64,000 bases of DNA from IMG/VR virus record IMGVR_UViG_3300031998_000006, positions 151,311-215,310 of that record; one strand, given 5' to 3'. Positions 296 to 53,399 of this stretch are shown here, piece after piece. The translations under genes and the position numbers were made by a program. Positions within the stretch are counted from its first letter, which is position 1. Each line of letters opens with the position of its first letter. The notes under the pieces are model-generated. The model saw only the letters and a program-made list of their open reading frames with translations, was not told where the DNA came from and did not search any database. This stretch comes from a virus. Lineage: Duplodnaviria; Caudoviricetes.

Positions 296-1534
296 CTATC
301 CATGCACTAAAGATGCATGGGACTCCCCTAACTTACACGGACTGTTGTCCGTGATGGCTTCGGGCATTCTCGTTTCATTGCTTCCACGAGCATTTTTAAT
401 GACATCGGTAGGTTCCCTTCCTATTGTCCGTTTAACTCCTAGATACAGAATGTTCTGTGCGGCGTTCACATCCCTATCGTGCTGTGCATTGCATACGGGG
501 CAAACCCACTGCTTTATTCCTAACACAACTTGAGGGTTGATGTTACCGCAATGATGGCACGTCTTGGATGTGTTGTTTGCAGGTACTTTCATAAGGTTCG
601 TCTTGTAGGCTATGTATTGACGAAGCAATCCAAACCCCTGGTCGCCGATGGTCTTCCCGTGTTCTAACTCGGATGCCATTTTGTTCAAATTGACATCTTC
701 CACGAACACATACTGATACTTGTTGGCTAACTCACGGCTTACCTTGTGGAGCCAATCCTTGCGTTGGTTGACTACCTTTTCGTGTAGCCGTGCAACTTTT
801 AGTTTAGCTTTCTGGTAGCGGTGGGATTGGGTTTCCTTGCCTTTGACGAACCGGTTTGACTGAATCTGCTGATACTTTTCCAACTGCAATTCCTTGCGCT
901 TCAAAAATCTAGGACACTTGATTTTCGTGCCATTGCTCAAAGTAAGGAATGAATCGGAGTTGCAGTTCCAGTCTATGCCTACGGCTTTTCCATTCTGTAT
1001 CTTGTTCTGTTCTTCTTTAATATCTACACAAATCGCTACATACCATTTTCCGCTTGCGGACCGTTTAAAGGTAATAGTTTTCCACTTGCCCTTGCAGAAC
1101 TGTGAAGATGCACAGATGGGTATGTAGCCAAGCCTACGAGAAACAAATAATCCGTGAGAATTGATGTGGGCTACATTTCCTTGAATAGTGTACCTAAAGG
1201 AAGCCTTGTTGTTCTTCTTTCTCTTGAAGGTAGGGGGTTGCATAGGCTTTCCCTTGCGAATACCCTTGAGGGATGCAAAGAAATTCGTGTATGCTCCACG
1301 AACATCGCACCATACCTGTCCTAGGGGTATTGAATCCACATCCTTAATCCATTCAAGTGCTTCGGGCTTGAATTTTGCAAATGTGGGCTTGTAGCCCTCT
1401 ATGGGCATTTTGTGGTCTTTGTTCTTGTTCTCAACTACAAGGTTGTAATACAGACGGCAAAGACCAAGTGTTTTGTTGAAGATAGACACTTGTTCCTTGG
1501 TTGGATAGATTCTGTATTCGTATGCCTTGTTCAT
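296..1534 (-). CDS. tnpB: IS200/IS605-family RNA-guided endonuclease TnpB
   Basis: N-terminal HTH (KAYEYRIYPTKEQ), RuvC-I (AVGIDWN), RuvC-II (VFVEDVN), Zn ribbon (TSKTCHHCG...CPVC), RuvC-III (DRDVNAAQNI). Confidence 0.95.
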   Translation of the reverse strand: MNKAYEYRIYPTKEQVSIFNKTLGLCRLYYNLVVENKNKDHKMPIEGYKPTFAKFKPEALEWIKDVDSIPLGQVWCDVRGAYTNFFASLKGIRKGKPMQPPTFKRKKNNKASFRYTIQGNVAHINSHGLFVSRRLGYIPICASSQFCKGKWKTITFKRSASGKWYVAICVDIKEEQNKIQNGKAVGIDWNCNSDSFLTLSNGTKIKCPRFLKRKELQLEKYQQIQSNRFVKGKETQSHRYQKAKLKVARLHEKVVNQRKDWLHKVSRELANKYQYVFVEDVNLNKMASELEHGKTIGDQGFGLLRQYIAYKTNLMKVPANNTSKTCHHCGNINPQVVLGIKQWVCPVCNAQHDRDVNAAQNILYLGVKRTIGREPTDVIKNARGSNETRMPEAITDNSPCKLGESHASLVHG

Positions 1535-10850: not shown

Positions 10851-10884
10851 TGTGTTATCCTCGGTTGATGGTTGAAAAACTTTT

Positions 10885-15634: not shown

Positions 15635-15673
15635 TGTGGTTGTCCTCGGTGGTTGAATTTTTTGTACACCTTA

Positions 15674-15702
15674 AATATAACACTTTATCCAATAAGTGTC
15701 AA
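15674..15702 (-). promoter_or_regulatory. Strong sigma70-like (early-type) promoter
   Basis: TTGACA-17-TATATT; nearly identical to 29578-29606. Confidence 0.75.
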
Positions 15703-21602: not shown

Positions 21603-22898
21603 TTATGCGAAAACGTAACGTTTCCATTTCCGCTGTTTATAGAAGTCACTAAAGACTGCATTACAAACATAGTCTGTTAGCAGGAAGCGATATTTGAGTT
21701 TCGCTTCTTTGACTTTTTGGAATAAGTTCTTCCAGGTCTTCACTCCATCAAGCGTTTGCTTCCATCGCTCGTCTTGAGTTTCAACGTTAAACTTGGGATA
21801 GAACCACCCCTTTTCAAATTTCTTATATGCCCTTCTAGCAATCTCGATGCTTGCAGAAACCATATCGGGAGTATTTGGATTTCCGTATGCAAAGTTGCCC
21901 ACAATAGATGAATAAGCAGGATTAACCTCAACGAACTCATACTTGTGGATGTTGGCAAGCATATTCAACTTGTTCACAAATAGTTGGCGTTCCCATCTGT
22001 TGTTGCAAAGCCTGTTAAAAGTCTTGCCCTTCTGTTTATCTGTAGGCTTGATAGACAGGTCTTCAATAGCCAGTTTACTGCACTTCCAATAATCAACCAA
22101 TTTGTTAATTTTGTGGGCAATCGCTACTGTTTCGTGCTTTAACTTATTCGTAGAATACTTGGATTTTGCATCCGATAAAGATTTACCACTAGGTTTTGTT
22201 AAGGCTGTAAGGTCATACACCTCTTTGTGAAGAACTCTTAATTCATCATTTTTATCAAACTCAATAACAGATACCCCTATGTAGTTGGGGTTCATATCTA
22301 TGCCTAACACTCTGTTATGCTTCAAACTCTTATAGGCTTCGTTGTAAATCAATGATTCATCATAGGTAAGATACAGGTGCTTGTCCGTAAACTTGACTGT
22401 AACAGGCATTTTCTTCTGTTCGGCTAACTCTTGAACTTTGGCTAACTCTTGTGCCAACTTTTTCTTTACAGAACAAAACTTTATTTCTTTGCGAATGTCA
22501 CGGTTCGGTTTATACCTTACAGTGTTATTCGCAAAATCAAACGAAAACAAGCGATTCCCGTGATAGTTAGACTCACCTATACTGCATAAGGGCATTTGCC
22601 GTTCCTGCTTAAACTGCTCTTTGGTAATCAAGCCTTTAAGGTATTGTTTTAGATTCCACTTACCACCGAACAGGACTTTTTTACAATTATTAGCATTTAA
22701 CAATCCGTGGGCTTCCTTTACAGCGGATGAAGCAAGCCAACAGTTTACACCGAAAATTTCTTTAAGTTTGTGCCATGTGGTATTCTCGGAGCAGCCCTCT
22801 TGAAGACGGTTATATGCCATACGGAACATACTGCTATACACACGGATAGCATCCGACAAGTTAGGTTTATTCGTTATGGCTAGTTTCAACGTCTTCAC
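21603..22898 (-). CDS. TnpB-related RuvC nuclease, paralog 1 (431 aa)
   Basis: VLGIDMNP, LAIEDL, VNPAYSSIVG, PDMVSASIEIARR; no Zn ribbon. Confidence 0.85.
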   Translation of the reverse strand: MKTLKLAITNKPNLSDAIRVYSSMFRMAYNRLQEGCSENTTWHKLKEIFGVNCWLASSAVKEAHGLLNANNCKKVLFGGKWNLKQYLKGLITKEQFKQERQMPLCSIGESNYHGNRLFSFDFANNTVRYKPNRDIRKEIKFCSVKKKLAQELAKVQELAEQKKMPVTVKFTDKHLYLTYDESLIYNEAYKSLKHNRVLGIDMNPNYIGVSVIEFDKNDELRVLHKEVYDLTALTKPSGKSLSDAKSKYSTNKLKHETVAIAHKINKLVDYWKCSKLAIEDLSIKPTDKQKGKTFNRLCNNRWERQLFVNKLNMLANIHKYEFVEVNPAYSSIVGNFAYGNPNTPDMVSASIEIARRAYKKFEKGWFYPKFNVETQDERWKQTLDGVKTWKNLFQKVKEAKLKYRFLLTDYVCNAVFSDFYKQRKWKRYVFA

Positions 22899-22954
22899 TC
22901 CACAAATATACATTATGGTAGCATTATTGCCAATGTTACCATACATAATTTAAG

Positions 22955-23782: not shown

Positions 23783-25078
23783 TTAATTAAAAAGTAGTAA
23801 TTTCCACTTTCGTTGATTATAGAAGCCACTAAAGACTGCATTTCCAACATAGTTGGATAGCAGGAAACGATATTTGAGTTTCGCTTCTTTGACTTTTAGG
23901 AATAAATTCTTCCAAGTTTTAACTCCGGCTAGTGTTTGCTTCCATCGCTCATCTAGCGTTTCTACGTTGAACTTGGGATAGAACCATCCCTTTTCAAATT
24001 TCTTATATGCCCTGCGTGCTATCTCAATAGAAGACGCTACCATATCGGGAGTAGTTGGACCACCGTATGCGAAATTCCCTACGATTGAAGAATATGCAGG
24101 GTTTACTTCAACCAACTCGTATCTGTGAATGCCTGCAAGCATTTTCAACTTGTTCACGAACAGCGAACGGTCCCACTTATTGTTGCAAAGCCTGTTGAAA
24201 GTCTTGCCCATCTGTTTATCGGAAGACTTGATAGACAAGTCTTCAACAGCAAGTTTATTACACTTCCAACAATCCACCAACTTGTTAATCTTATGGGCTA
24301 TGGCTAGGGTTTCGTGCTTCAACTTATTCGTAAAATACTTGGATTTCTTGTCGGTGCTTGCTTCTCCGCTAGGCTTTGTGAGAGCCGTTAAATCAAACAC
24401 CTCTTTGTGCAGGACCTTAAATTCGTCAGCCTTATCAAACTCAATGACGGACACCCCTATGTAGTTGGGGTTCATATCTATGCCCAAAACACGATTATGC
24501 TTCAAGCCCTTGTATGCTTCGTTGTAAATCAAGGACTCGTCGTAAGTTAGATACAGGTATTTGTCCGTGAACTTAACAGTCACGGGCATTTTCTTTTGGT
24601 CCGCTAGTTCTTGGACCATAGCGAGTTCACGGGCGAGTTTCTTCTTGACAGGACAGAACTGAATTTCTTTACGGACACCACGAAAAGGCTTATAGACTAC
24701 ACGATTATTTAATAAACTAAAATCTACAAGACGGTTACCCTTAAACTGATATTCGCCTATACTACACAGGGGCATCAAGCGGTTCTGTTTGAACTGTTCC
24801 TTGGTAATCAAGCCTTTAAGATATTGCTTTAAATTCCACTTGCCCCCGAACACAATATGTCTTTGTTCTTGGGAATCAAACAAGGCGTGGGCATCCGTAA
24901 TAGCGGAACGTATTAACCAACAATTAACACTAAAGCGTCCTTTTATATACGCTGTAATTTGTTTCTCGGATAGCCCGTCTTGAAATCGGTTGAACGCAAC
25001 ACGCACCATACTGCTGAACACACGCATATCGTCCAACACATCGGGTTTGGTTAATGTTTGCAATTTAACCGTCTTCAT
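23783..25078 (-). CDS. TnpB-related RuvC nuclease, paralog 2 (431 aa)
   Basis: Same motifs as paralog 1. Confidence 0.85.
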   Translation of the reverse strand: MKTVKLQTLTKPDVLDDMRVFSSMVRVAFNRFQDGLSEKQITAYIKGRFSVNCWLIRSAITDAHALFDSQEQRHIVFGGKWNLKQYLKGLITKEQFKQNRLMPLCSIGEYQFKGNRLVDFSLLNNRVVYKPFRGVRKEIQFCPVKKKLARELAMVQELADQKKMPVTVKFTDKYLYLTYDESLIYNEAYKGLKHNRVLGIDMNPNYIGVSVIEFDKADEFKVLHKEVFDLTALTKPSGEASTDKKSKYFTNKLKHETLAIAHKINKLVDCWKCNKLAVEDLSIKSSDKQMGKTFNRLCNNKWDRSLFVNKLKMLAGIHRYELVEVNPAYSSIVGNFAYGGPTTPDMVASSIEIARRAYKKFEKGWFYPKFNVETLDERWKQTLAGVKTWKNLFLKVKEAKLKYRFLLSNYVGNAVFSGFYNQRKWKLLLFN

Positions 25079-25109
25079 ATCCGAAATATACATAATTCCT
25101 AGGAGATTG

Positions 25110-29537: not shown

Positions 29538-29577
29538 TTTGCTATCCTCGGTAAAATGTGGTTGTCTTTGTACCCTA

Positions 29578-29606
29578 AATATAACACTTTATCTATTAAG
29601 TGTCAA
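29578..29606 (-). promoter_or_regulatory. Strong sigma70-like promoter
   Basis: TTGACA-17-TATATT. Confidence 0.75.
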
Positions 29607-31881: not shown

Positions 31882-32171
31882 ACAAACACCCTAGTCGAAG
31901 TACCCAAGTTCTGCCACAGCATCCATTACCAACTTCACTTGGTAGGCATAGCAATATCCCTCAAGACAAACCATAGTGCTACGGTCGCCATACTTGACAT
32001 GGATGTAGAGATGCGGATTCTTCTTGAACTGGAAGTTATCGGGATTCCACTTCATTTCACGGATGAGGTCGGCAACGAACACCGTGATGGTGGGTGGTGT
32101 GTAGATACCACCTACAACTTTAGTATGGATGTCTGCAAGTTCTTGTGTCATTTTCATAAGATGTTCCTCGG

Positions 32172-32901: not shown

Positions 32902-32941
32902 TGAACTATCCTCGGCTGTGGTTGGTTGTCTTTGTACTCCA

Positions 32942-32969
32942 AATATAACAAAATATCTGTTGCCGTCAA
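32942..32969 (-). promoter_or_regulatory. Sigma70-like promoter
   Basis: TTGACG-16-TATATT. Confidence 0.6.
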
Positions 32970-33002: not shown

Positions 33003-34286
33003 TTACAAAAGGCAAGTGTCCTTGGAGAGCGGTCTGCCACAGACGGGGCAGGCAACACCCTCGATAGATGCATAGGCATCGTCAAGGTAGTCCTTGCAGT
33101 CCGCAATAGTTGTGGTCACGGAGTTGTATTCACGGACCGAACGGACGAGGGCTGACATATCCTTGCTAGTCCATCGGCACGGCTTCGGCTCTTCCAGCTT
33201 TGACAGCTTACGGAGTGCCAAATCCACGGACACTTCGGAATTGAGGATTTCCTTGTAGTTCTTGATGGAGCGTTGCATCGGGATGAGCTTGCCCTCCCAC
33301 TTGCACGGTTTCGGTTCTTCAAGACCGGCAAGTTCCTTGAGGTACTTCGTACATTCGGCAGTGGATGTGGATGTAGAACGATACTCACGAACCGAGCGGA
33401 CAATGGCTGACATATCCTTTTCCGTATGCTTCGGGGGTTCGGGCAGTTTAAGGGCTTCCACCTTGCGAATTGCCGGGTAAACCCTAGCGAGAACCTTGCA
33501 AGTATTGATGTAGGAATCCAATGCACGGATAGCCGATTCCTTGTTGTAGATGATAACGGAGCGGTCCCCGCTGACAAGCCATTCGGGAATATCAGGATAG
33601 TTGCGGATAGCCTTGTAGTCCATAATCAGCTTGGACAGGGCTTCAATGCGGTGGGTAAGGCTGTTAATGGTAGGCTCTTCGTCCGTAGCTTTCTTGAGAA
33701 GGTCTTCCGCTGACTCCACCCATTCGTAGGAACTGACCTCTTTCGTGAGGGCATCCACGGAATCCTTCGTTTCTTCAAGGGTTGCGGAGGTATCTGCAAC
33801 ATTCCTCTTGGCGATGGAGAGGATTTCGTCCACGCACTCAAGACCTGCGAGGGAGTTGAGGTACTGGGATGCTTCGCCGGGGGTGGCTGCGAGAAGGAAA
33901 GGAGCATCCATCTGCCGTTGAACGGATGCATCGGCAAGATTGAAAATCTTCGTGACATCATCGGGAACAGCGGTGCGGAGAGCTTCGTACACCTTGCCGT
34001 CCACGATGTAACCATTGAAATCGTTAGAACGCTTTCGCTCAATGATGTGTCCGTCAACTTCCACGATGACGGAGGTGTATTCGTCAGCCTTGAACTTCGT
34101 CTTGTTCTTTGCCCAGTAGGACACATAAGCATCCCCGGACGGAGTGTTGAACAGAACCCAGTACAAGGCACGGAGAACAGCGGTCTTACCACTGTTGGAG
34201 TTGCCCGAAAGCACCGTGGAACGACCAAGGTCAAGGTCTAGGTGCTTATGGCATTGAAAGTTGTGAATGGTAATTCTTGAAATCAA
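33003..34286 (-). CDS. SbcC/Rad50/gp46-like ATPase, N-terminal half
   Basis: I.NFQCH, Walker A GNSNSGKT, Q-loop, coiled coil; ends at the Zn hook CPVCG. Confidence 0.88.
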   Translation of the reverse strand: MISRITIHNFQCHKHLDLDLGRSTVLSGNSNSGKTAVLRALYWVLFNTPSGDAYVSYWAKNKTKFKADEYTSVIVEVDGHIIERKRSNDFNGYIVDGKVYEALRTAVPDDVTKIFNLADASVQRQMDAPFLLAATPGEASQYLNSLAGLECVDEILSIAKRNVADTSATLEETKDSVDALTKEVSSYEWVESAEDLLKKATDEEPTINSLTHRIEALSKLIMDYKAIRNYPDIPEWLVSGDRSVIIYNKESAIRALDSYINTCKVLARVYPAIRKVEALKLPEPPKHTEKDMSAIVRSVREYRSTSTSTAECTKYLKELAGLEEPKPCKWEGKLIPMQRSIKNYKEILNSEVSVDLALRKLSKLEEPKPCRWTSKDMSALVRSVREYNSVTTTIADCKDYLDDAYASIEGVACPVCGRPLSKDTCLL

Positions 34287-36507: not shown

Positions 36508-37443
36508 CTAGGTCTTGTCCGGGTTGTAGGCGTCAAGAACCTTCTGTGTTTCTGCACGAACATCCTTGTCCTTTTCCTTGGACATAGCTTCTTCCACATT
36601 TGCGATGAAGTCGAGATGCGGAACTTCAAATGCTTGCAGACCCTCCATATAAGTTTCAAGGGATTGACGGGATTCCCTCTTCGGGTCCGGATGAACCTTG
36701 CCGAACTTCTTGAGTGGAACTTCCTTGATGGAGAAGTCGGAAGTGTCTAGGATATAGACACGGGGCTTGTAGTCTGCCATATCCGATGCTTGAATGTTAA
36801 GGCATCCGCAAGTGACCACCTTCGCATTCTTGAACTCACGGATGTAACCGTGATGATAGTCGCCGGTCAAAATTAACGAAGCATTAGAACGCTTCAAGAG
36901 GTCTTCTGCAATGATACCAATGTCCGTCAGCGGAGTTCCGTTGCTAGAGTGAGGACGGGCGTCATTATCCGGGAATACGAGTTCGTGAACACACCAGATG
37001 TCGCAATCTGGAATCTTTTCCGGTACAGCCCCGAACGGATAGGCTTCAAGAAGGGTCTGTACATTCTCGTGGTTGACCAAATCAAACCACGAACTCGAAC
37101 GGAGTTCAGTCACGTTGTCCAACGAGAAGATTGTTCCGATTGTGGACTTGGACACATTTTCGTATTGATGCTGGAGTTCATCATGGTTTCCTACAAGCAC
37201 ACGGACCGGAGTCTTTCCGAAGCCCCTCAAGAGGTTCAATGCCTGCACGGTTGCTTCCGTAGATGTCCTTGCACGATGGAAGAGGTCGCCAAGAATCCAC
37301 ACTTCATCGCAATGCTCTTCTTCCACGATTGGATAAAGCTGTTCCACAGATTGCTTCTGTTCTTCAAGCCAATTATCGGGGTCAACTCGACAAATAGGTG
37401 CATCTCCACGAAGATGCCAGTCTGCTGTTAGTAAACAACGCAT
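36508..37443 (-). CDS. SbcD/Mre11/gp47-like metallophosphoesterase nuclease
   Basis: ADWH, GDLFH, GNHD, GDYH. Confidence 0.9.
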   Translation of the reverse strand: MRCLLTADWHLRGDAPICRVDPDNWLEEQKQSVEQLYPIVEEEHCDEVWILGDLFHRARTSTEATVQALNLLRGFGKTPVRVLVGNHDELQHQYENVSKSTIGTIFSLDNVTELRSSSWFDLVNHENVQTLLEAYPFGAVPEKIPDCDIWCVHELVFPDNDARPHSSNGTPLTDIGIIAEDLLKRSNASLILTGDYHHGYIREFKNAKVVTCGCLNIQASDMADYKPRVYILDTSDFSIKEVPLKKFGKVHPDPKRESRQSLETYMEGLQAFEVPHLDFIANVEEAMSKEKDKDVRAETQKVLDAYNPDKT

Positions 37444-37958
37444 TAACGTAGTTCCTTCTTGTAAAAGTCCTTTTCGGATTCCATCACTTCGATAGAAACG
37501 ATGCCACACGAACCACGCCTAACGGGGGTACTATCGGAGATGCCAAGTTCCTTCTTCTTCAAGCCCAGGAACTTAATGGCAAGTTCTTCATCCGTGAAAT
37601 ACCAAGATTTTTCACCGAACGGAGTAGCTGTGGGGCTATTATTGATAAATACCTTATATTCTGTCTTCATAATTTATCCTGCATTGAAACTTGCGTGAAC
37701 CACAACCGCCTGCTTATCCGTAGGCAATGTGTAAATTCCGATTTCTGTAATCTCTTCTACCTTGTGCGAAAGAAAGAAGTCCTTCCTATAACTTACGATG
37801 TCACCGCTATCACGGAGTTTTGAACCATCAGCGGTGAACTTATCGAAAACTCCATCGTTAATCAAGTCAACTAGCTTGGCACGGGATTCACAAGCGATTA
37901 CCGCTGAATCGTATGTGTCATATTCAAACTGGTTAGTTTCAACCAAAAACAGCTTCAT
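37443..37958 (-). CDS. Two small hypothetical ORFs (37443-37670, 37674-37958)
   Basis: ORF track. Confidence 0.6.
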
Positions 37959-37970
37959 AAAAAGTCCTAG

Positions 37971-38034
37971 AAAAGAAAAAGTGGCATCCCCTTATCTTTA
38001 AGACAACCACATCCGAGGAACAAGGGGATGCCAC
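37971..38034 (-). terminator. Intrinsic terminator or sRNA hairpin with 28-nt loop
   Basis: Perfect 13-bp stem GTGGCATCCCCTT/AAGGGGATGCCAC followed by a U-tract on the minus strand. Confidence 0.75.
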
Positions 38035-38138
38035 GAGAAAGTTCTAAAATTAAAGCAATAAAACTTATCTATCTGGCAAAATATTACATACTAATATAGT
38101 AATTTTGTCGTTCCAAAGATAGCAAATATATAATCCCA

Positions 38139-39434
38139 TTAAACAAAAACGTGATATATCCACTTTTGCTTATGATAGATTTTACTCAAGACTGCGTTTC
38201 CAACATAGTCGGATAGCAGGAAACGATATTTGAGTTTCGCTTCTTTAACTTTCTGGAATAGTTTCTTCCAAGTTTTCACTCCATCAAGTGTTTGCTTCCA
38301 TCGCTCATCTTGAGTTTCAACGCTGAACTTGGGGTAGAACCACCCCTTTTCAAATTTCTTGTATGCCCTGCGAGCTATTTCAATGCTTGCCGCAACCATA
38401 TCGGGAGTATTCTCATTGCCGTATGCAAAGTTACCCACAATAGAGGAATACGCCGGATTGACCTCAACCAACTCGTACTTGTGTATGTTGGCAAGCATTT
38501 TGATTTTATTTACGAATAATTTTCGCTTCCATTTATTATTACATAATATATTTATATTCTTACCTTTATGTTTATTTGCGGGTGCTATACTTAACTCCTC
38601 AATAGCGAGTTTAGAACATTTCCAGTAATCCAGCAACTTGTTAATCTTATGAGCTATCGCTATTGTTTCGTGTTTCAACTTATTCAAGTAATACTTAGAT
38701 TTTGAATCCGAAGAATATTTCCCATTAGGCTTTGTAAGGGCTGTAAGGTCATACACCTCTTTATGCAAGACCTGAAATTCATCATTCTTACCAAACTCGA
38801 TAACTGATACCCCGATGTAGTTGGGGTTCATATCTATGCCGAGAACACGATTAATTTTTAAGCCCTTGTAGGTTTCGTTATGAATTAAAGTTTCATCATA
38901 CGTTAAAAATATATGGGTATCAGTAATTTTTACAGTTATAGGTATTTTATTTTGATTTGCTAATTCCTGTACAATAGAAAGTTCGTGAGCCAGTTTCTTT
39001 TTTAAGGGGCAGAATTTAATCTCCTTATGCACACCACGAGAAGGCTTATATATAATAACTTGATTGCCTAAATCAAACTCAAATAACCTATTACCCGCAT
39101 ACTGACTTTCGCCGACGCTACATAACGGATGCATTCTATGTTGCTTAAACTGTTCTTTAGTAATATAGCCCTTTAAATATCGCTTTAAATTATATTTACC
39201 ACCGAACAATATAGGCTTTCCGCTACTAGACAAAAATAACCCTTGAGCTTCCTTTGTTGCCGAGGAAGCTAACCAACAATTTACACCAAAAATTTCCTTA
39301 ATCTTATGCCAGGTATCATTCCCAGAACATCCTTCTTGCAACCGTTTATAAGCCATACGAAACATACTACTATACACACGAATATCATCGTGTATATCAG
39401 GGCTATTTACTATGGCTAATTTTAAAGTCTTCAT
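38139..39434 (-). CDS. TnpB-related RuvC nuclease, paralog 3 (431 aa)
   Basis: Same motifs as paralogs 1 and 2. Confidence 0.85.
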   Translation of the reverse strand: MKTLKLAIVNSPDIHDDIRVYSSMFRMAYKRLQEGCSGNDTWHKIKEIFGVNCWLASSATKEAQGLFLSSSGKPILFGGKYNLKRYLKGYITKEQFKQHRMHPLCSVGESQYAGNRLFEFDLGNQVIIYKPSRGVHKEIKFCPLKKKLAHELSIVQELANQNKIPITVKITDTHIFLTYDETLIHNETYKGLKINRVLGIDMNPNYIGVSVIEFGKNDEFQVLHKEVYDLTALTKPNGKYSSDSKSKYYLNKLKHETIAIAHKINKLLDYWKCSKLAIEELSIAPANKHKGKNINILCNNKWKRKLFVNKIKMLANIHKYELVEVNPAYSSIVGNFAYGNENTPDMVAASIEIARRAYKKFEKGWFYPKFSVETQDERWKQTLDGVKTWKKLFQKVKEAKLKYRFLLSDYVGNAVLSKIYHKQKWIYHVFV

Positions 39435-39440
39435 ATTGCA

Positions 39441-39546
39441 AATATACATTATGGTAGCATAATTGTCAAGACCATCTAACAATTTTTTTTTTAATAGCGT
39501 AAAATTAACAATGTCTGTTGACAATTTCTAGGTAATCAGTTATATT
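39441..39546. promoter_or_regulatory. Divergent promoter pair at the strand switch
   Basis: TTGACA-17-TATATT on minus (39469-39441) and on plus (39518-39546). Confidence 0.7.
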
Positions 39547-39762
39547 ATGGTTATGACAAAGCAGCCACATACCGACGACATCACGGGCATCATCGCCATG
39601 CTTCCCGAAGACAAGCGGAAGCTCTTCCTAAACACTCTCTACTCTATAGCCCGAACAGCTATTGATGCCCGATGCGGAGAACTGCAAATTATGGATATTG
39701 AAATCCTGCAATCCCTAGAAGCCGAAAGTAACGCTATATTTGAAGAGTGGATTTTTAAATAG
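39547..39762 (+). CDS. Hypothetical protein
   Basis: ORF directly after the promoter. Confidence 0.6.
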   Translation: MVMTKQPHTDDITGIIAMLPEDKRKLFLNTLYSIARTAIDARCGELQIMDIEILQSLEAESNAIFEEWIFK

Positions 39763-39808
39763 AACGAAAATTAGTTAAATTAAGTAGTATAAGACCAAAG
39801 AGGATATT

Positions 39809-40075
39809 ATGCCGAAATTAAAAATTAAAATTCACGAAAAATCCACGGATTTACTTGAAACCACCAAACAATTCCAGGACGCATTGGAATATGCCTACCA
39901 TAACTTTAATGGTAAAGTGTTCCTTGATGAAATGCGGAGTATCGCAAATAAGGAAAGAACTTATAGCGACACCGCTTCATGGGAACAAAAAAGTGTTACA
40001 CCCGTAATTGACCGCCTTAAAGAAGCAATGTCTGCCTTTGCTACTACCTTGCATCATAGTATAGATGCCCTATAA
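39809..40075 (+). CDS. Putative internal head protein
   Basis: N-terminus MPKLKIKIHE. Confidence 0.6.
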   Translation: MPKLKIKIHEKSTDLLETTKQFQDALEYAYHNFNGKVFLDEMRSIANKERTYSDTASWEQKSVTPVIDRLKEAMSAFATTLHHSIDAL

Positions 40076-51481: not shown

Positions 51482-51625
51482 TTGCCTACTGTTTAGAGAT
51501 TATTTATATTTGTAGTATAAAGTTTAATGAATTAGTCGCATTCTTCATTAAACTACAGAAATCATTTTATGACGGCTCGTTTGGAATTGAATGCGACAGT
51601 AAGTTCCGAACGAGCCATTTTTGTT
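51482..51625 (+). promoter_or_regulatory. Promoter plus two-hairpin kissing-loop leader
   Basis: TTGCCT-17-TATATT; complementary loops GTCGCATTC and GAATGCGAC. Confidence 0.6.
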
Positions 51626-51632
51626 TATATCT

Positions 51633-53399
51633 ATGAGTAAACACTGTTGGACATTGAAGGATAGATATGAGTCACAGTTCGCTGTGTCCTTCTATCCGCT
51701 TATGTTGTCCAACACGAAGAAAGCCGAAATCCTACATAGGGCAGAAGAGATACGGACGATTAGAAACGAAATATCGGAAATCTTCTTTTCGGATATGCTT
51801 GGATTCCAGGATATGTCCAAGTTTGAAGCCTTTAATTATTTCAATCCGTTATTTAGTAAAAGACTGCGTAGCCACTACTTGAAAAAAGCCATCGAGGATG
51901 TGTGGAAATCTTATCAACTTAGATTTGATGCTATTCGTAATAAGATAGAGTTCGTTAAAGTAGAAGAACTTGTTCCATCATTCTACAAGATAAATTCGCA
52001 TGGACATAAAAATGGAGAGTTGAGGTCAATAGAACGGCATACAAAGAAGACTGAACTCACAAAGGTTCTTACTTGGCTTGCTAGATATGGTAAGGATGAT
52101 TCCGTGCAATGGCTTGAATCTGTAATGCCTAGTGTAGTTGAAACAAAGAAAAAATTTTATAAAACTATATTAGTAAAGATTCAAAAATTTGGGTTTGCTA
52201 GATTGATGCAATTAGCATTATCTCGTAGAGAGTCTGTTTATAAATTGTATCAAAAACGTGGTAGGATTAATTTTGAATCGCTAACTTTTAGTGGTAGGAG
52301 TAGATTGACCTCTCCAATAGTATGTGCTAGACGAAATGAAAATGGAAAGTTTGATTACTTTATAGAGATTTCTTGGGATTGGTTTAATAAAGGGTATCGT
52401 GGGGGGAGTGACCATTCTTTATGTATTCCATTTAAGTATAATAAGGCATATCATAGGTCTTTAAAAAGATATTGTAATGGGGATTGTACACCTTACACTG
52501 TTGTGATTCGTGGAAATGATATACATATAGTTCTTACTCGTGTGGGTTATAGATATAAGAATATAACTACGATACTCCCGGATAATACTATCGGTATTGA
52601 TATAAATTCAAAGCATAATATGTTGGCATTGAGTAGTGGAGCGTTTATATCTAATGACGATGATTTGATTGAAGATTTAAAAACCGAGTTACTAAAAATA
52701 GATAAGAAACACAAGAGTTATAATGATAAATTTAATAAAAATGAAGAACATAGTGCATTTAAGTGGTCTAGGAAAGATAAGGCTCGTATATTTGCTATTT
52801 CTTTAAAACTTAATGAATCTAATAAGAGAACTATTGCGAATGTATGTAAGAATTATGGTTTAGGCGGTGTAGAAAATCTAGTTCTAGAGAACTTAACTGG
52901 ATTTAAAGGAAGCAAACTCTATGCTGATGATTCAAAAGGCTTTAATTTAGGGCGGTTACATTTAAGGACTAGACTCTCGTCATTAAAGGATGAGTTTATC
53001 CATATAGCCCCCAAGTACGGGTTATCTGTGTCATTGGTTCAGCCTGAATATACATCCAAGATGTGTGGGCATTGCGGATGCATAGATGACCGTAATCGCC
53101 AAACCCAAGAAGTTTTTAAATGCGTTGAATGTGGGCATACTGAAAATGCGGACATTCATAGTGCAAAGAATATAAAATTCCGTCTTACCTCGACCGTGTT
53201 AAGAGGGTACTTGCTTGAAAAGGCAAGGGATAACGGATATAGGAACTTTCAGCCAAAGAGCTTGTCTAGGTGGCAAGTAAGGGAGTTCCTAGAAAAATGT
53301 CATCATAGTGGATTGTTTGAGCAGTCTATAGAAAATTACACAAAGCCTGCGATTAGTAGAATTTGTGTGATTTTAGGTGGTGCCGGTCTATTTTCTTAA
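51633..53399 (+). CDS. Long TnpB/Cas12f-like RuvC nuclease (588 aa)
   Basis: IGIDIN, VLENL, PEYTSKMCGHCG...CVECG...NADIHSAKNI; low GC. Confidence 0.85.
   Translation: MSKHCWTLKDRYESQFAVSFYPLMLSNTKKAEILHRAEEIRTIRNEISEIFFSDMLGFQDMSKFEAFNYFNPLFSKRLRSHYLKKAIEDVWKSYQLRFDAIRNKIEFVKVEELVPSFYKINSHGHKNGELRSIERHTKKTELTKVLTWLARYGKDDSVQWLESVMPSVVETKKKFYKTILVKIQKFGFARLMQLALSRRESVYKLYQKRGRINFESLTFSGRSRLTSPIVCARRNENGKFDYFIEISWDWFNKGYRGGSDHSLCIPFKYNKAYHRSLKRYCNGDCTPYTVVIRGNDIHIVLTRVGYRYKNITTILPDNTIGIDINSKHNMLALSSGAFISNDDDLIEDLKTELLKIDKKHKSYNDKFNKNEEHSAFKWSRKDKARIFAISLKLNESNKRTIANVCKNYGLGGVENLVLENLTGFKGSKLYADDSKGFNLGRLHLRTRLSSLKDEFIHIAPKYGLSVSLVQPEYTSKMCGHCGCIDDRNRQTQEVFKCVECGHTENADIHSAKNIKFRLTSTVLRGYLLEKARDNGYRNFQPKSLSRWQVREFLEKCHHSGLFEQSIENYTKPAISRICVILGGAGLFS

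Follow-up and report, generated by a model that had tools for sequence, protein, structure and literature searches.

A conserved terminator-like hairpin of uncultivated jumbo phages carries a loop complementary to a shared leader and is a candidate anti-leader riboregulator

Proteins are known to carry out the temporal shut-off of early genes in bacteriophages: translational repressors, factors that modify the polymerase, and nucleases, of which RegB is an example. In RNA-based control, the seeds of known 3' UTR-derived sRNAs lie upstream of the terminator, and the C4 antisense RNA of phage P1 uses two short complementary stretches. The T4 endoribonuclease RegB is described in PMC1702504 as a protein nuclease that cuts GGAG and globally inactivates early phage mRNAs at the Shine-Dalgarno sequence. 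Bacterial sRNAs that derive from 3' UTRs or are embedded in terminators, as far as they are treated in PMC7821165, share the terminator hairpin and U-tail of an mRNA and contain a short conserved region complementary to ribosome-binding sites on further mRNAs. For icaR of Staphylococcus aureus, PMC3868564 describes a pyrimidine-rich anti-Shine-Dalgarno motif in the 3' UTR that pairs with the Shine-Dalgarno sequence of the leader and blocks translation, acting within one mRNA. The C4 antisense RNA of phage P1 is encoded by the phage within the operon of its own target, binds a site on the mRNA and blocks the downstream genes; in the account of PMC8198154 it is part of an immunity switch and acts on a single operon, icd-ant.

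The hairpin analysed here lies in the terminal 64 kb of one 215,310-bp jumbo-phage virus contig of 46% G+C; this whole stretch of 64,000 nucleotides is termed the window, and coordinates refer to it unless the genome is named. The likeness to the 3' UTR-derived sRNAs lies in the terminator hairpin with its U-tail and in the short conserved region complementary to ribosome-binding sites. However, this region is placed in the apical loop of the terminator and not upstream of it, the hairpin is phage-encoded, and its predicted targets are copies of a uniform leader cassette (about 15–21) and not diverse mRNAs. The anti-Shine-Dalgarno motif in a 3' UTR recalls icaR, and the phage origin recalls P1 C4, except that the hairpin would address many operons through a common leader. 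The proposed outcome, inactivation of early phage mRNAs at the Shine-Dalgarno sequence, is that of RegB, here reached by RNA pairing with the Shine-Dalgarno block and a second leader block. A GC-rich stem, a U-tract and a place directly after a stop codon are shared with canonical rho-independent terminators, whereas the large, invariant loop is not.

The hairpin (37981–38034, minus strand) has a perfect GC-rich stem of 13 bp, in which the plus-strand arm GTGGCATCCCCTT at 37981–37993 pairs with its exact complement at 38022–38034, and a 28-nt loop (37994–38021); the loop reads as the original prediction gave it. Immediately 3' of the stem on the minus strand is the U-rich tract TTTTTCTTTTCT (37969–37980, read from 37980 down to 37969). 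The loop core at 38001–38019 (minus strand) consists of the anti-Shine-Dalgarno block UCCUCGG, 2 nt and then GUGGUUGUCU. In RNAfold predictions the stem lengthens to 16 pairs, and the 201-nt region around the hairpin folds with z = -3.46, a stability reached by 0 of 200 shuffles. The loop core has a mean unpaired probability of 0.47–0.60. The loop sequence is invariant and its length is 20–28 nt in relatives.

All 10 members of the hairpin family combine a GC-rich stem with a direct U-tract 3' of a gene, as rho-independent terminators do, while the loop exceeds the about 3–8 nt customary for that class. The hairpin is atypical as a terminator, its loop being unusually large. A consensus terminator scan did not include it among the sites listed, and a stringent scan of the genome gave 10 terminator-like hairpins, seven of them with loops of 4–11 nt; the large loops in this set belong to the present hairpin (28 nt) and to two hairpins adjoining canonical TnpB copies (23 and 25 nt). 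The two large-loop, T-tailed hairpins beside TnpB copies, at genome positions 100907 and 115177, are similar to one another and may be IS ends. Rfam covariance models searched against 37600–38500 gave two chance-level matches (E > 1), both off the stem and loop. A covariance model of the hairpin itself matched once per record in 46 sources and detected no second copy; its sole extra match was the antisense of the leader before 29537, with E = 0.66. Neither megablast of 37000–40000 nor tblastn of the neighbouring Mre11-like protein found a relative among 50,697 phage records, and a search of openly accessible articles found no description of the element or of the phage group.

The two blocks of the loop are mirrored in a promoter-leader cassette that recurs through the genome. 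The cassette consists of TTGACA, 17 nt, an extended -10 element GTGTTATATTT, about 8–12 nt, the 5'-proximal leader block AGACAACCAC, a variable spacer of 0–12 nt and the Shine-Dalgarno block (A)CCGAGGA(TA), with the ATG 5–9 nt beyond. UCCUCGG of the loop is the complement of CCGAGGA and GUGGUUGUCU is the complement of AGACAACCAC; loop and two-block leader are thus reverse complements, in agreement with the proposal that it is antisense to a common leader including its GAGGA ribosome-binding site. A genome-wide scan with AACCA-N0-14-C[CG]GAGG[AT] found 15 distinct sites ahead of an ATG in the 215-kb genome, of which 13 directly follow the conserved -10 element GTTATATT of a sigma-70-type promoter. 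The remaining matches were one chance match in a coding region and the hairpin, the only copy that runs against the direction of the genes around it. In a 213-kb relative, 21 leaders were found in addition to the hairpin (a -10 element nearby in 19, a start codon in all 21), and a 215.7-kb relative has 21 matches to the leader pattern. In two near-complete relatives, 23 and 21 matches compare with 0 for a reversed control pattern in both, and every record with the hairpin carries the leader motif repeatedly. From the promoter geometry, the 5' block probably falls within the first ~15 nt of the mRNA. The sigma-70-type promoters suggest that the leader operons are transcribed by the host polymerase, and hence that they are early genes.

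The complementarity between loop and leaders is far beyond chance. When the 28-nt loop was scanned as RNA against both strands of the genome (43,052 windows), the eight best non-self windows were all leaders, with duplex energies of -28.0 to -37.1 kcal/mol against a background mean of -13.8 kcal/mol (sd 3.3); between -27.6 and -26 kcal/mol further leaders are intermixed with chance sites. Predicted targets in the window, all on the minus strand, include 29538–29585 (consensus -10 and two-block leader before ATG 29537; duplex -32.2 kcal/mol), 32902–32949 (consensus -10 and leader before ATG 32901; -28.4 kcal/mol) and 15635–15681 (consensus -10 and leader before ATG 15634, from the leader-motif scans). 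A leader-like ribosome-binding region at 10851–10875, before ATG 10850, has no consensus promoter directly upstream. These four and a site near 32171 are the five minus-strand matches that the original prediction quoted, and all are present; the genome-wide motif and interaction scans that it had proposed as checks both return the leaders. A conserved single-stranded region complementary to the ribosome-binding sites of its targets is thus found here, as in base-pairing sRNAs.

At genome 129600–130400 (minus strand), about 200 nt of strongly folding RNA lie between a promoter at 130226 and the leader at 130025 (-71.7 kcal/mol, z = -2.8). This sequence contains the tRNA T-arm-like GGTTCGAATCC, has no Rfam match and no ARAGORN call; the leader downstream of it is the best of the loop's predicted targets. 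At genome 139345 (minus strand), outside the window, a consensus promoter is directly followed by a sequence that looks by eye like a tRNA gene, and some copies of the promoter cassette may drive RNA genes without a leader. A divergent TTGACA-17-TATATT promoter at 39518–39553 (plus strand) has its -10 element abutting ATG 39547, with a second ATG at 39553, and may mark a leaderless start; the 40 nt past it look like a decayed common leader with GACGA in place of GAGGA.

The genes neighbouring the hairpin are all on the minus strand. Downstream, gene D (37674–37958, minus strand; 94 aa, phrog_5444) starts 10 nt after the U-tract and is the syntenic anchor in relatives. Upstream, an AT-rich non-coding spacer (38035–38138, minus strand) extends from the stop codon of a TnpB/Cas12f-like gene to the hairpin and forms the 3' UTR of that gene. 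In the relatives no TnpB-like gene stands beside the hairpin, which lies 5–12 nt past the stop codon of the third and last gene of an operon (127, 86 and 187–196 aa). This operon itself begins with a consensus promoter followed by a leader of the class described above. This genome has no homologues of the three genes, and the TnpB-like gene occupies their place. The operon proteins A, B and C, like D and E, have no informative Pfam or PHROG match. Two contigs from other samples, one of DNA (X7) and one from an RNA library (X24), are nearly identical to the present sequence from inside gene D through the hairpin, with 2–4 differing letters over the aligned parts; each diverges at 38051, which is 17 nt upstream of the stem. 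Close strains are therefore polymorphic in the segment that precedes the hairpin, where the TnpB-like gene has replaced the operon.

The family was assembled by synteny and by pattern. A search with protein D alone in five related viral records found a homologue in three, and in two of these (L036 and L037) a hairpin lies at the same syntenic place; their D proteins are about 50% identical, the stem sequence is entirely different and the loop is nearly the same. A wider search with D added two further members, L169 and L170. Pattern scans of viral and metagenome contigs contributed L041, L042, L043, L147 and L152; at least 117 stretches in the metagenome scan were filtered for a flanking inverted repeat of at least 8 bp, which left at least 10 distinct sequences, viral-contig matches included. 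Three candidates (L046, L048 and L058) were dropped by eye because they have neither a GC-rich stem abutting the core nor a T-tract. The hairpin family comprises at least 10 distinct sequences, that is, this phage and at least nine others, and the D proteins across it are only 40–54% identical. Seven of the 10 members came from a pattern in which 17 of the 19 core positions are prescribed (protein D led to two of the seven, L040 and L044, as well), so that core invariance rests mainly on the members found by synteny. Both loop blocks are kept in the four members found by synteny alone. The only substitution in their anti-Shine-Dalgarno block is a single C to U change in L169, which on the gene strand retains a G-U pair with the leader. 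In L170, whose D protein is 40% identical, the blocks are separated by 4 nt rather than 2, and here too the stem sequence is unrelated.

The unrelated stems retain their pairing. In the alignment A6, 93.9% of the cells are paired, whereas shuffles give 76.1%. Compensatory changes on both sides occur in 11 of the 17 pairs, and none of 500 shuffles reached either value; these figures are indications and not probabilities, since the members are related to one another and the alignment had been fitted to the structure of the model. Sliding the partner by 1–3 columns drops the pairing to 39–57%. The loop is predicted to contain two small helices, which are constant in all members and hence uninformative for covariation, and the blocks of loop and leader are both invariant in every record that has them, which leaves no co-variation between loop and leader to score. 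Three loci (L001, L038 and L171) have no hairpin, and in them the D domain is fused to or overlapped by an upstream frame. The hairpin model matched none of five more distant jumbo-phage records, an empty answer that alone shows nothing; the same records have 0–1 leader-pattern matches each, about the level of the reversed control, and one of them has the D gene. The co-occurrence of hairpin and leader fits a functional link and may only reflect shared descent. The conserved loop on covarying stems argues for a function at the RNA level, apparently aimed at the leader regulon.

The gene upstream of the hairpin in this phage encodes a RuvC protein of 431 aa (38139–39434, minus strand) and lies outside the conserved element. 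The open frame spans 461 codons (38139–39524), and ATG 39434 is probably the real start. A TTGACA-17-TATATT promoter at 39441–39469 (minus strand) places its -10 element 6 nt before this ATG, and the mRNA is probably leaderless. The protein matched nothing in local Pfam, PHROGs and PDB sequences, the OrfB_IS605 and Cas12f1-like TNB zinc-finger domains included, and no CxxC pair is visible in the translation. A large database contains 1,438 homologues tagged PF27229, a family missing from the local Pfam library, and D201, E279 and D345 are invariant in 20 sequences. The AlphaFold model (pLDDT 79) has Cas12f, Cas12k, Fanzor2 and TnpB as its top Foldseek folds in the PDB, with E = 1e-9 to 1e-4. 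A RuvC fold with a D-E-D triad within an overall Cas12f/TnpB-like fold agrees with membership in the TnpB/Cas12f superfamily, and these folds and the invariant triad bear out the label 'TnpB-related' under which it had been listed.

It is one of five TnpB/Cas12f-like paralogs, 69–76% identical, each standing alone between phage genes and all missed by the local Pfam library. The other two in the window are at 21603–22946 and 23783–25093 (minus strand), and two more are at genome 11684–12994 and 33909–35225 (plus strand). A promoter of the TTGACA-17-TATATT type, with the ATG about 6 nt past the -10 element in a manner suggesting leaderless mRNAs, precedes three of the five (38139–39434 and the two plus-strand copies); the two tightly packed minus-strand paralogs have no such promoter. 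At the conserved right end of the paralogs, a Shine-Dalgarno sequence and TTG provide the start codon of the next phage gene, an arrangement seen after 21603 and 23783 and in four related loci (L002, L003, L004 and L007). The paralogs look like a homing-type mobile gene that plugs in ahead of a host gene. In viral contigs, 34 loci related to them were found. Separately, tblastn detected about ten canonical or distant TnpB (OrfB_IS605) copies in the 215-kb genome, for example at 296–1534 (minus strand) and 51621–53399 (plus strand) of the window.

Several features point to the minus strand as the source of the relevant RNA. On the gene strand, the stem is followed by a T-rich tail in 10 of 10 members. 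Folding of this strand is also favoured, by 2.9 kcal/mol on average, and several stem pairs are G-U there; in addition, the plus strand has neither a predicted promoter nor a conserved ATG at the hairpin, as detailed below. The assignment to the minus strand that had been made from the U-tract is upheld by these features. A separate sRNA gene with its own promoter, as originally envisaged, is not predicted here. The TATATT cited for it is present on the minus strand (38089–38084, about 50 nt upstream of the stem) but has no usable -35 element, a promoter scan of the minus strand from 38035 to 38138 gave no promoter-like site, and in relatives the stop codon upstream leaves no room for a separate promoter. 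Because the hairpin begins 5–12 nt after that stop codon in relatives, the upstream mRNA most likely carries it as its own 3' end, from which a stable fragment may be trimmed. In this phage, transcripts running into the hairpin probably start at the promoter at 39441–39469.

Transcript evidence was taken from assembled contigs of two DNA and two RNA-library runs, in which uncovered parts do not count as evidence. One RNA-library contig covers 37918–38051 and bridges the hairpin into gene D; it gives neither strand nor ends and may be DNA carry-over, but as RNA it would point to read-through and not to termination. For the downstream genes, namely D, E and those of the SbcCD-like proteins, no consensus promoter occurs before 32949, so that transcription has to pass the hairpin at some point. 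Among them are the genes of a Rad50/SbcC-like ATPase and an Mre11/SbcD-like phosphoesterase (33003–34286 and 36508–37509, minus strand), and the expression of this SbcC/SbcD-like pair may depend on such read-through.

Four other explanations of the hairpin were weighed. The plus strand could be the functional one, as a genuine or remnant leader of a small open reading frame of 23 codons (38028–38099) or as an RNA decoy. Read in this direction the loop contains both leader blocks, and an ATG 8 nt after the GAGGA, within the 3' arm, opens the frame. However, the ATG is present at that place in only two of six stem versions (by eye), so that the conserved start codon and frame expected of a small ORF or type I toxin-like gene are lacking, no consensus -10 lies ahead and no plus-strand promoter-like site is predicted in 37700–37980, five relatives have no antisense promoter near the hairpin, and the T-tract and G-U pairs described above favour the other strand. 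We regard a plus-strand function as very improbable. Two remnants were also rejected: a remnant promoter, suggested by AAAGTG 18 nt before the leader block, a distance also seen in real promoters, since the corresponding letters of relatives are no more than the U-tract and stem in complement, and a remnant leader left by insertion of the TnpB-like gene, since relatives without that gene retain the hairpin. Guide RNAs of TnpB lie at the 3' side of the gene, and the hairpin is 104 nt downstream of a gene whose product has a Cas12f/TnpB/Cas12k/Fanzor-like fold and an invariant triad. As TnpB is guided by RNA in the system described in PMC8612924, the hairpin could be a guide or omega-RNA-like partner that directs the adjacent nuclease to leader DNA. 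An omega-RNA or reRNA would be expected always to accompany its nuclease gene, at or overlapping the 3' end; here relatives keep the hairpin without the gene, no such hairpin lies downstream of the other four paralogs of the genome or of the 12 related loci inspected, and the DNA similarity among the three paralogs of the window stops at the reading frame. A guide function is extremely unlikely on these grounds, and the link to the adjacent RuvC protein, which had been offered as a less likely option, is not borne out. Because relatives keep the hairpin without the TnpB-like gene, it is independent of that gene, neither its by-product nor its guide RNA.

The hairpin could also be an ordinary terminator or 3'-end stabiliser, in which the loop is conserved for another reason, for example as the site of a phage antiterminator or RNA-binding factor, and the complementarity to leaders has no role in pairing. 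The GC-rich stem and U-tract directly after a stop codon are those of a terminator; the promoterless genes downstream need read-through or regulated termination, and the RNA-library contig bridges the hairpin. Against this, a protein-binding site would have to match by chance the exact complement of both blocks, 17–19 nt, in every member, and no candidate binding protein was found, proteins A to E being without informative matches; this explanation is considered unlikely. Pairing in cis would be of the icaR type, the loop binding the leader of its own operon mRNA and controlling the translation or stability of that operon only. Anti-Shine-Dalgarno pairing between 5' and 3' UTRs is documented in the systems covered by PMC3868564 and PMC5737220, the hairpin of the relatives ends an operon that begins with a leader of the same class, and in the 213-kb relative the duplex with this leader has an energy of -25.3 kcal/mol. 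Yet the own leader, which has no full 5' block, ranks 17th of 21 by duplex energy (range -22.4 to -31.6 kcal/mol), and some 16 other leaders would pair as well or better. In the present genome the upstream mRNA has no such leader while the loop is intact, a weak argument, as the replacement may be very recent (see the break at 38051). The loop thus shows no tuning to the mRNA that carries it, a point in favour of action on all the leaders, and restriction to the own operon is judged improbable.

We therefore prefer, with moderate confidence, the reading of the hairpin as an anti-leader, anti-Shine-Dalgarno riboregulator that would act in trans on the leader regulon. The transcription unit that precedes the 94-aa gene, namely the TnpB-like gene here and the three-gene operon in relatives, would end in the hairpin in the manner of an intrinsic terminator. 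The RNA ending at the hairpin, or a stable fragment processed from it, would present UCCUCGG and GUGGUUGUCU in a mostly unpaired apical loop of 20–28 nt. This loop would pair in trans with CCGAGGA and AGACAACCAC of the leader common to about 15 operons (about 21 in a relative) and mask nearly all of the 5' UTR together with its ribosome-binding site. The 30S subunit would be kept from binding, and decay might be triggered. With accumulation of the stable 3' end, the sigma-70-type and probably early operons would be damped together, in the manner of a feedback or a timer. Production and accumulation of the RNA, its pairing and the repression are each predicted from the features of the DNA. Structure and stoichiometry weigh on this model. 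A helix of 17–19 bp within a closed loop of 28 nt is topologically strained, and most leaders have 3–8 extra nt between the blocks that would bulge in the duplex; the strain may ease where the target lies near the free 5' end of an mRNA. As to stoichiometry, one anti-leader RNA facing about 15–20 leader mRNAs would need far greater stability than its targets.

More tentatively than for the hairpin itself, we propose that in this clade of uncultivated cattle-gut jumbo phages one terminator-loop RNA may shut down together the translation of about 15–21 operons that depend on the host polymerase. The predicted regulon of 15–21 near-identical targets per genome makes reporter testing unusually easy, for which the host is not needed, and the element gives a handle on regulation in large phages that have no cultured member among the phage collection searched. 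If the proposal is true, terminator loops can bear regulatory seeds. One conserved RNA complementary to every copy of a common early leader would be a different and very economical means of shut-off, an RNA counterpart of the early shut-off by RegB and RegA of T4 and a built-in timer of the switch from early to later genes.
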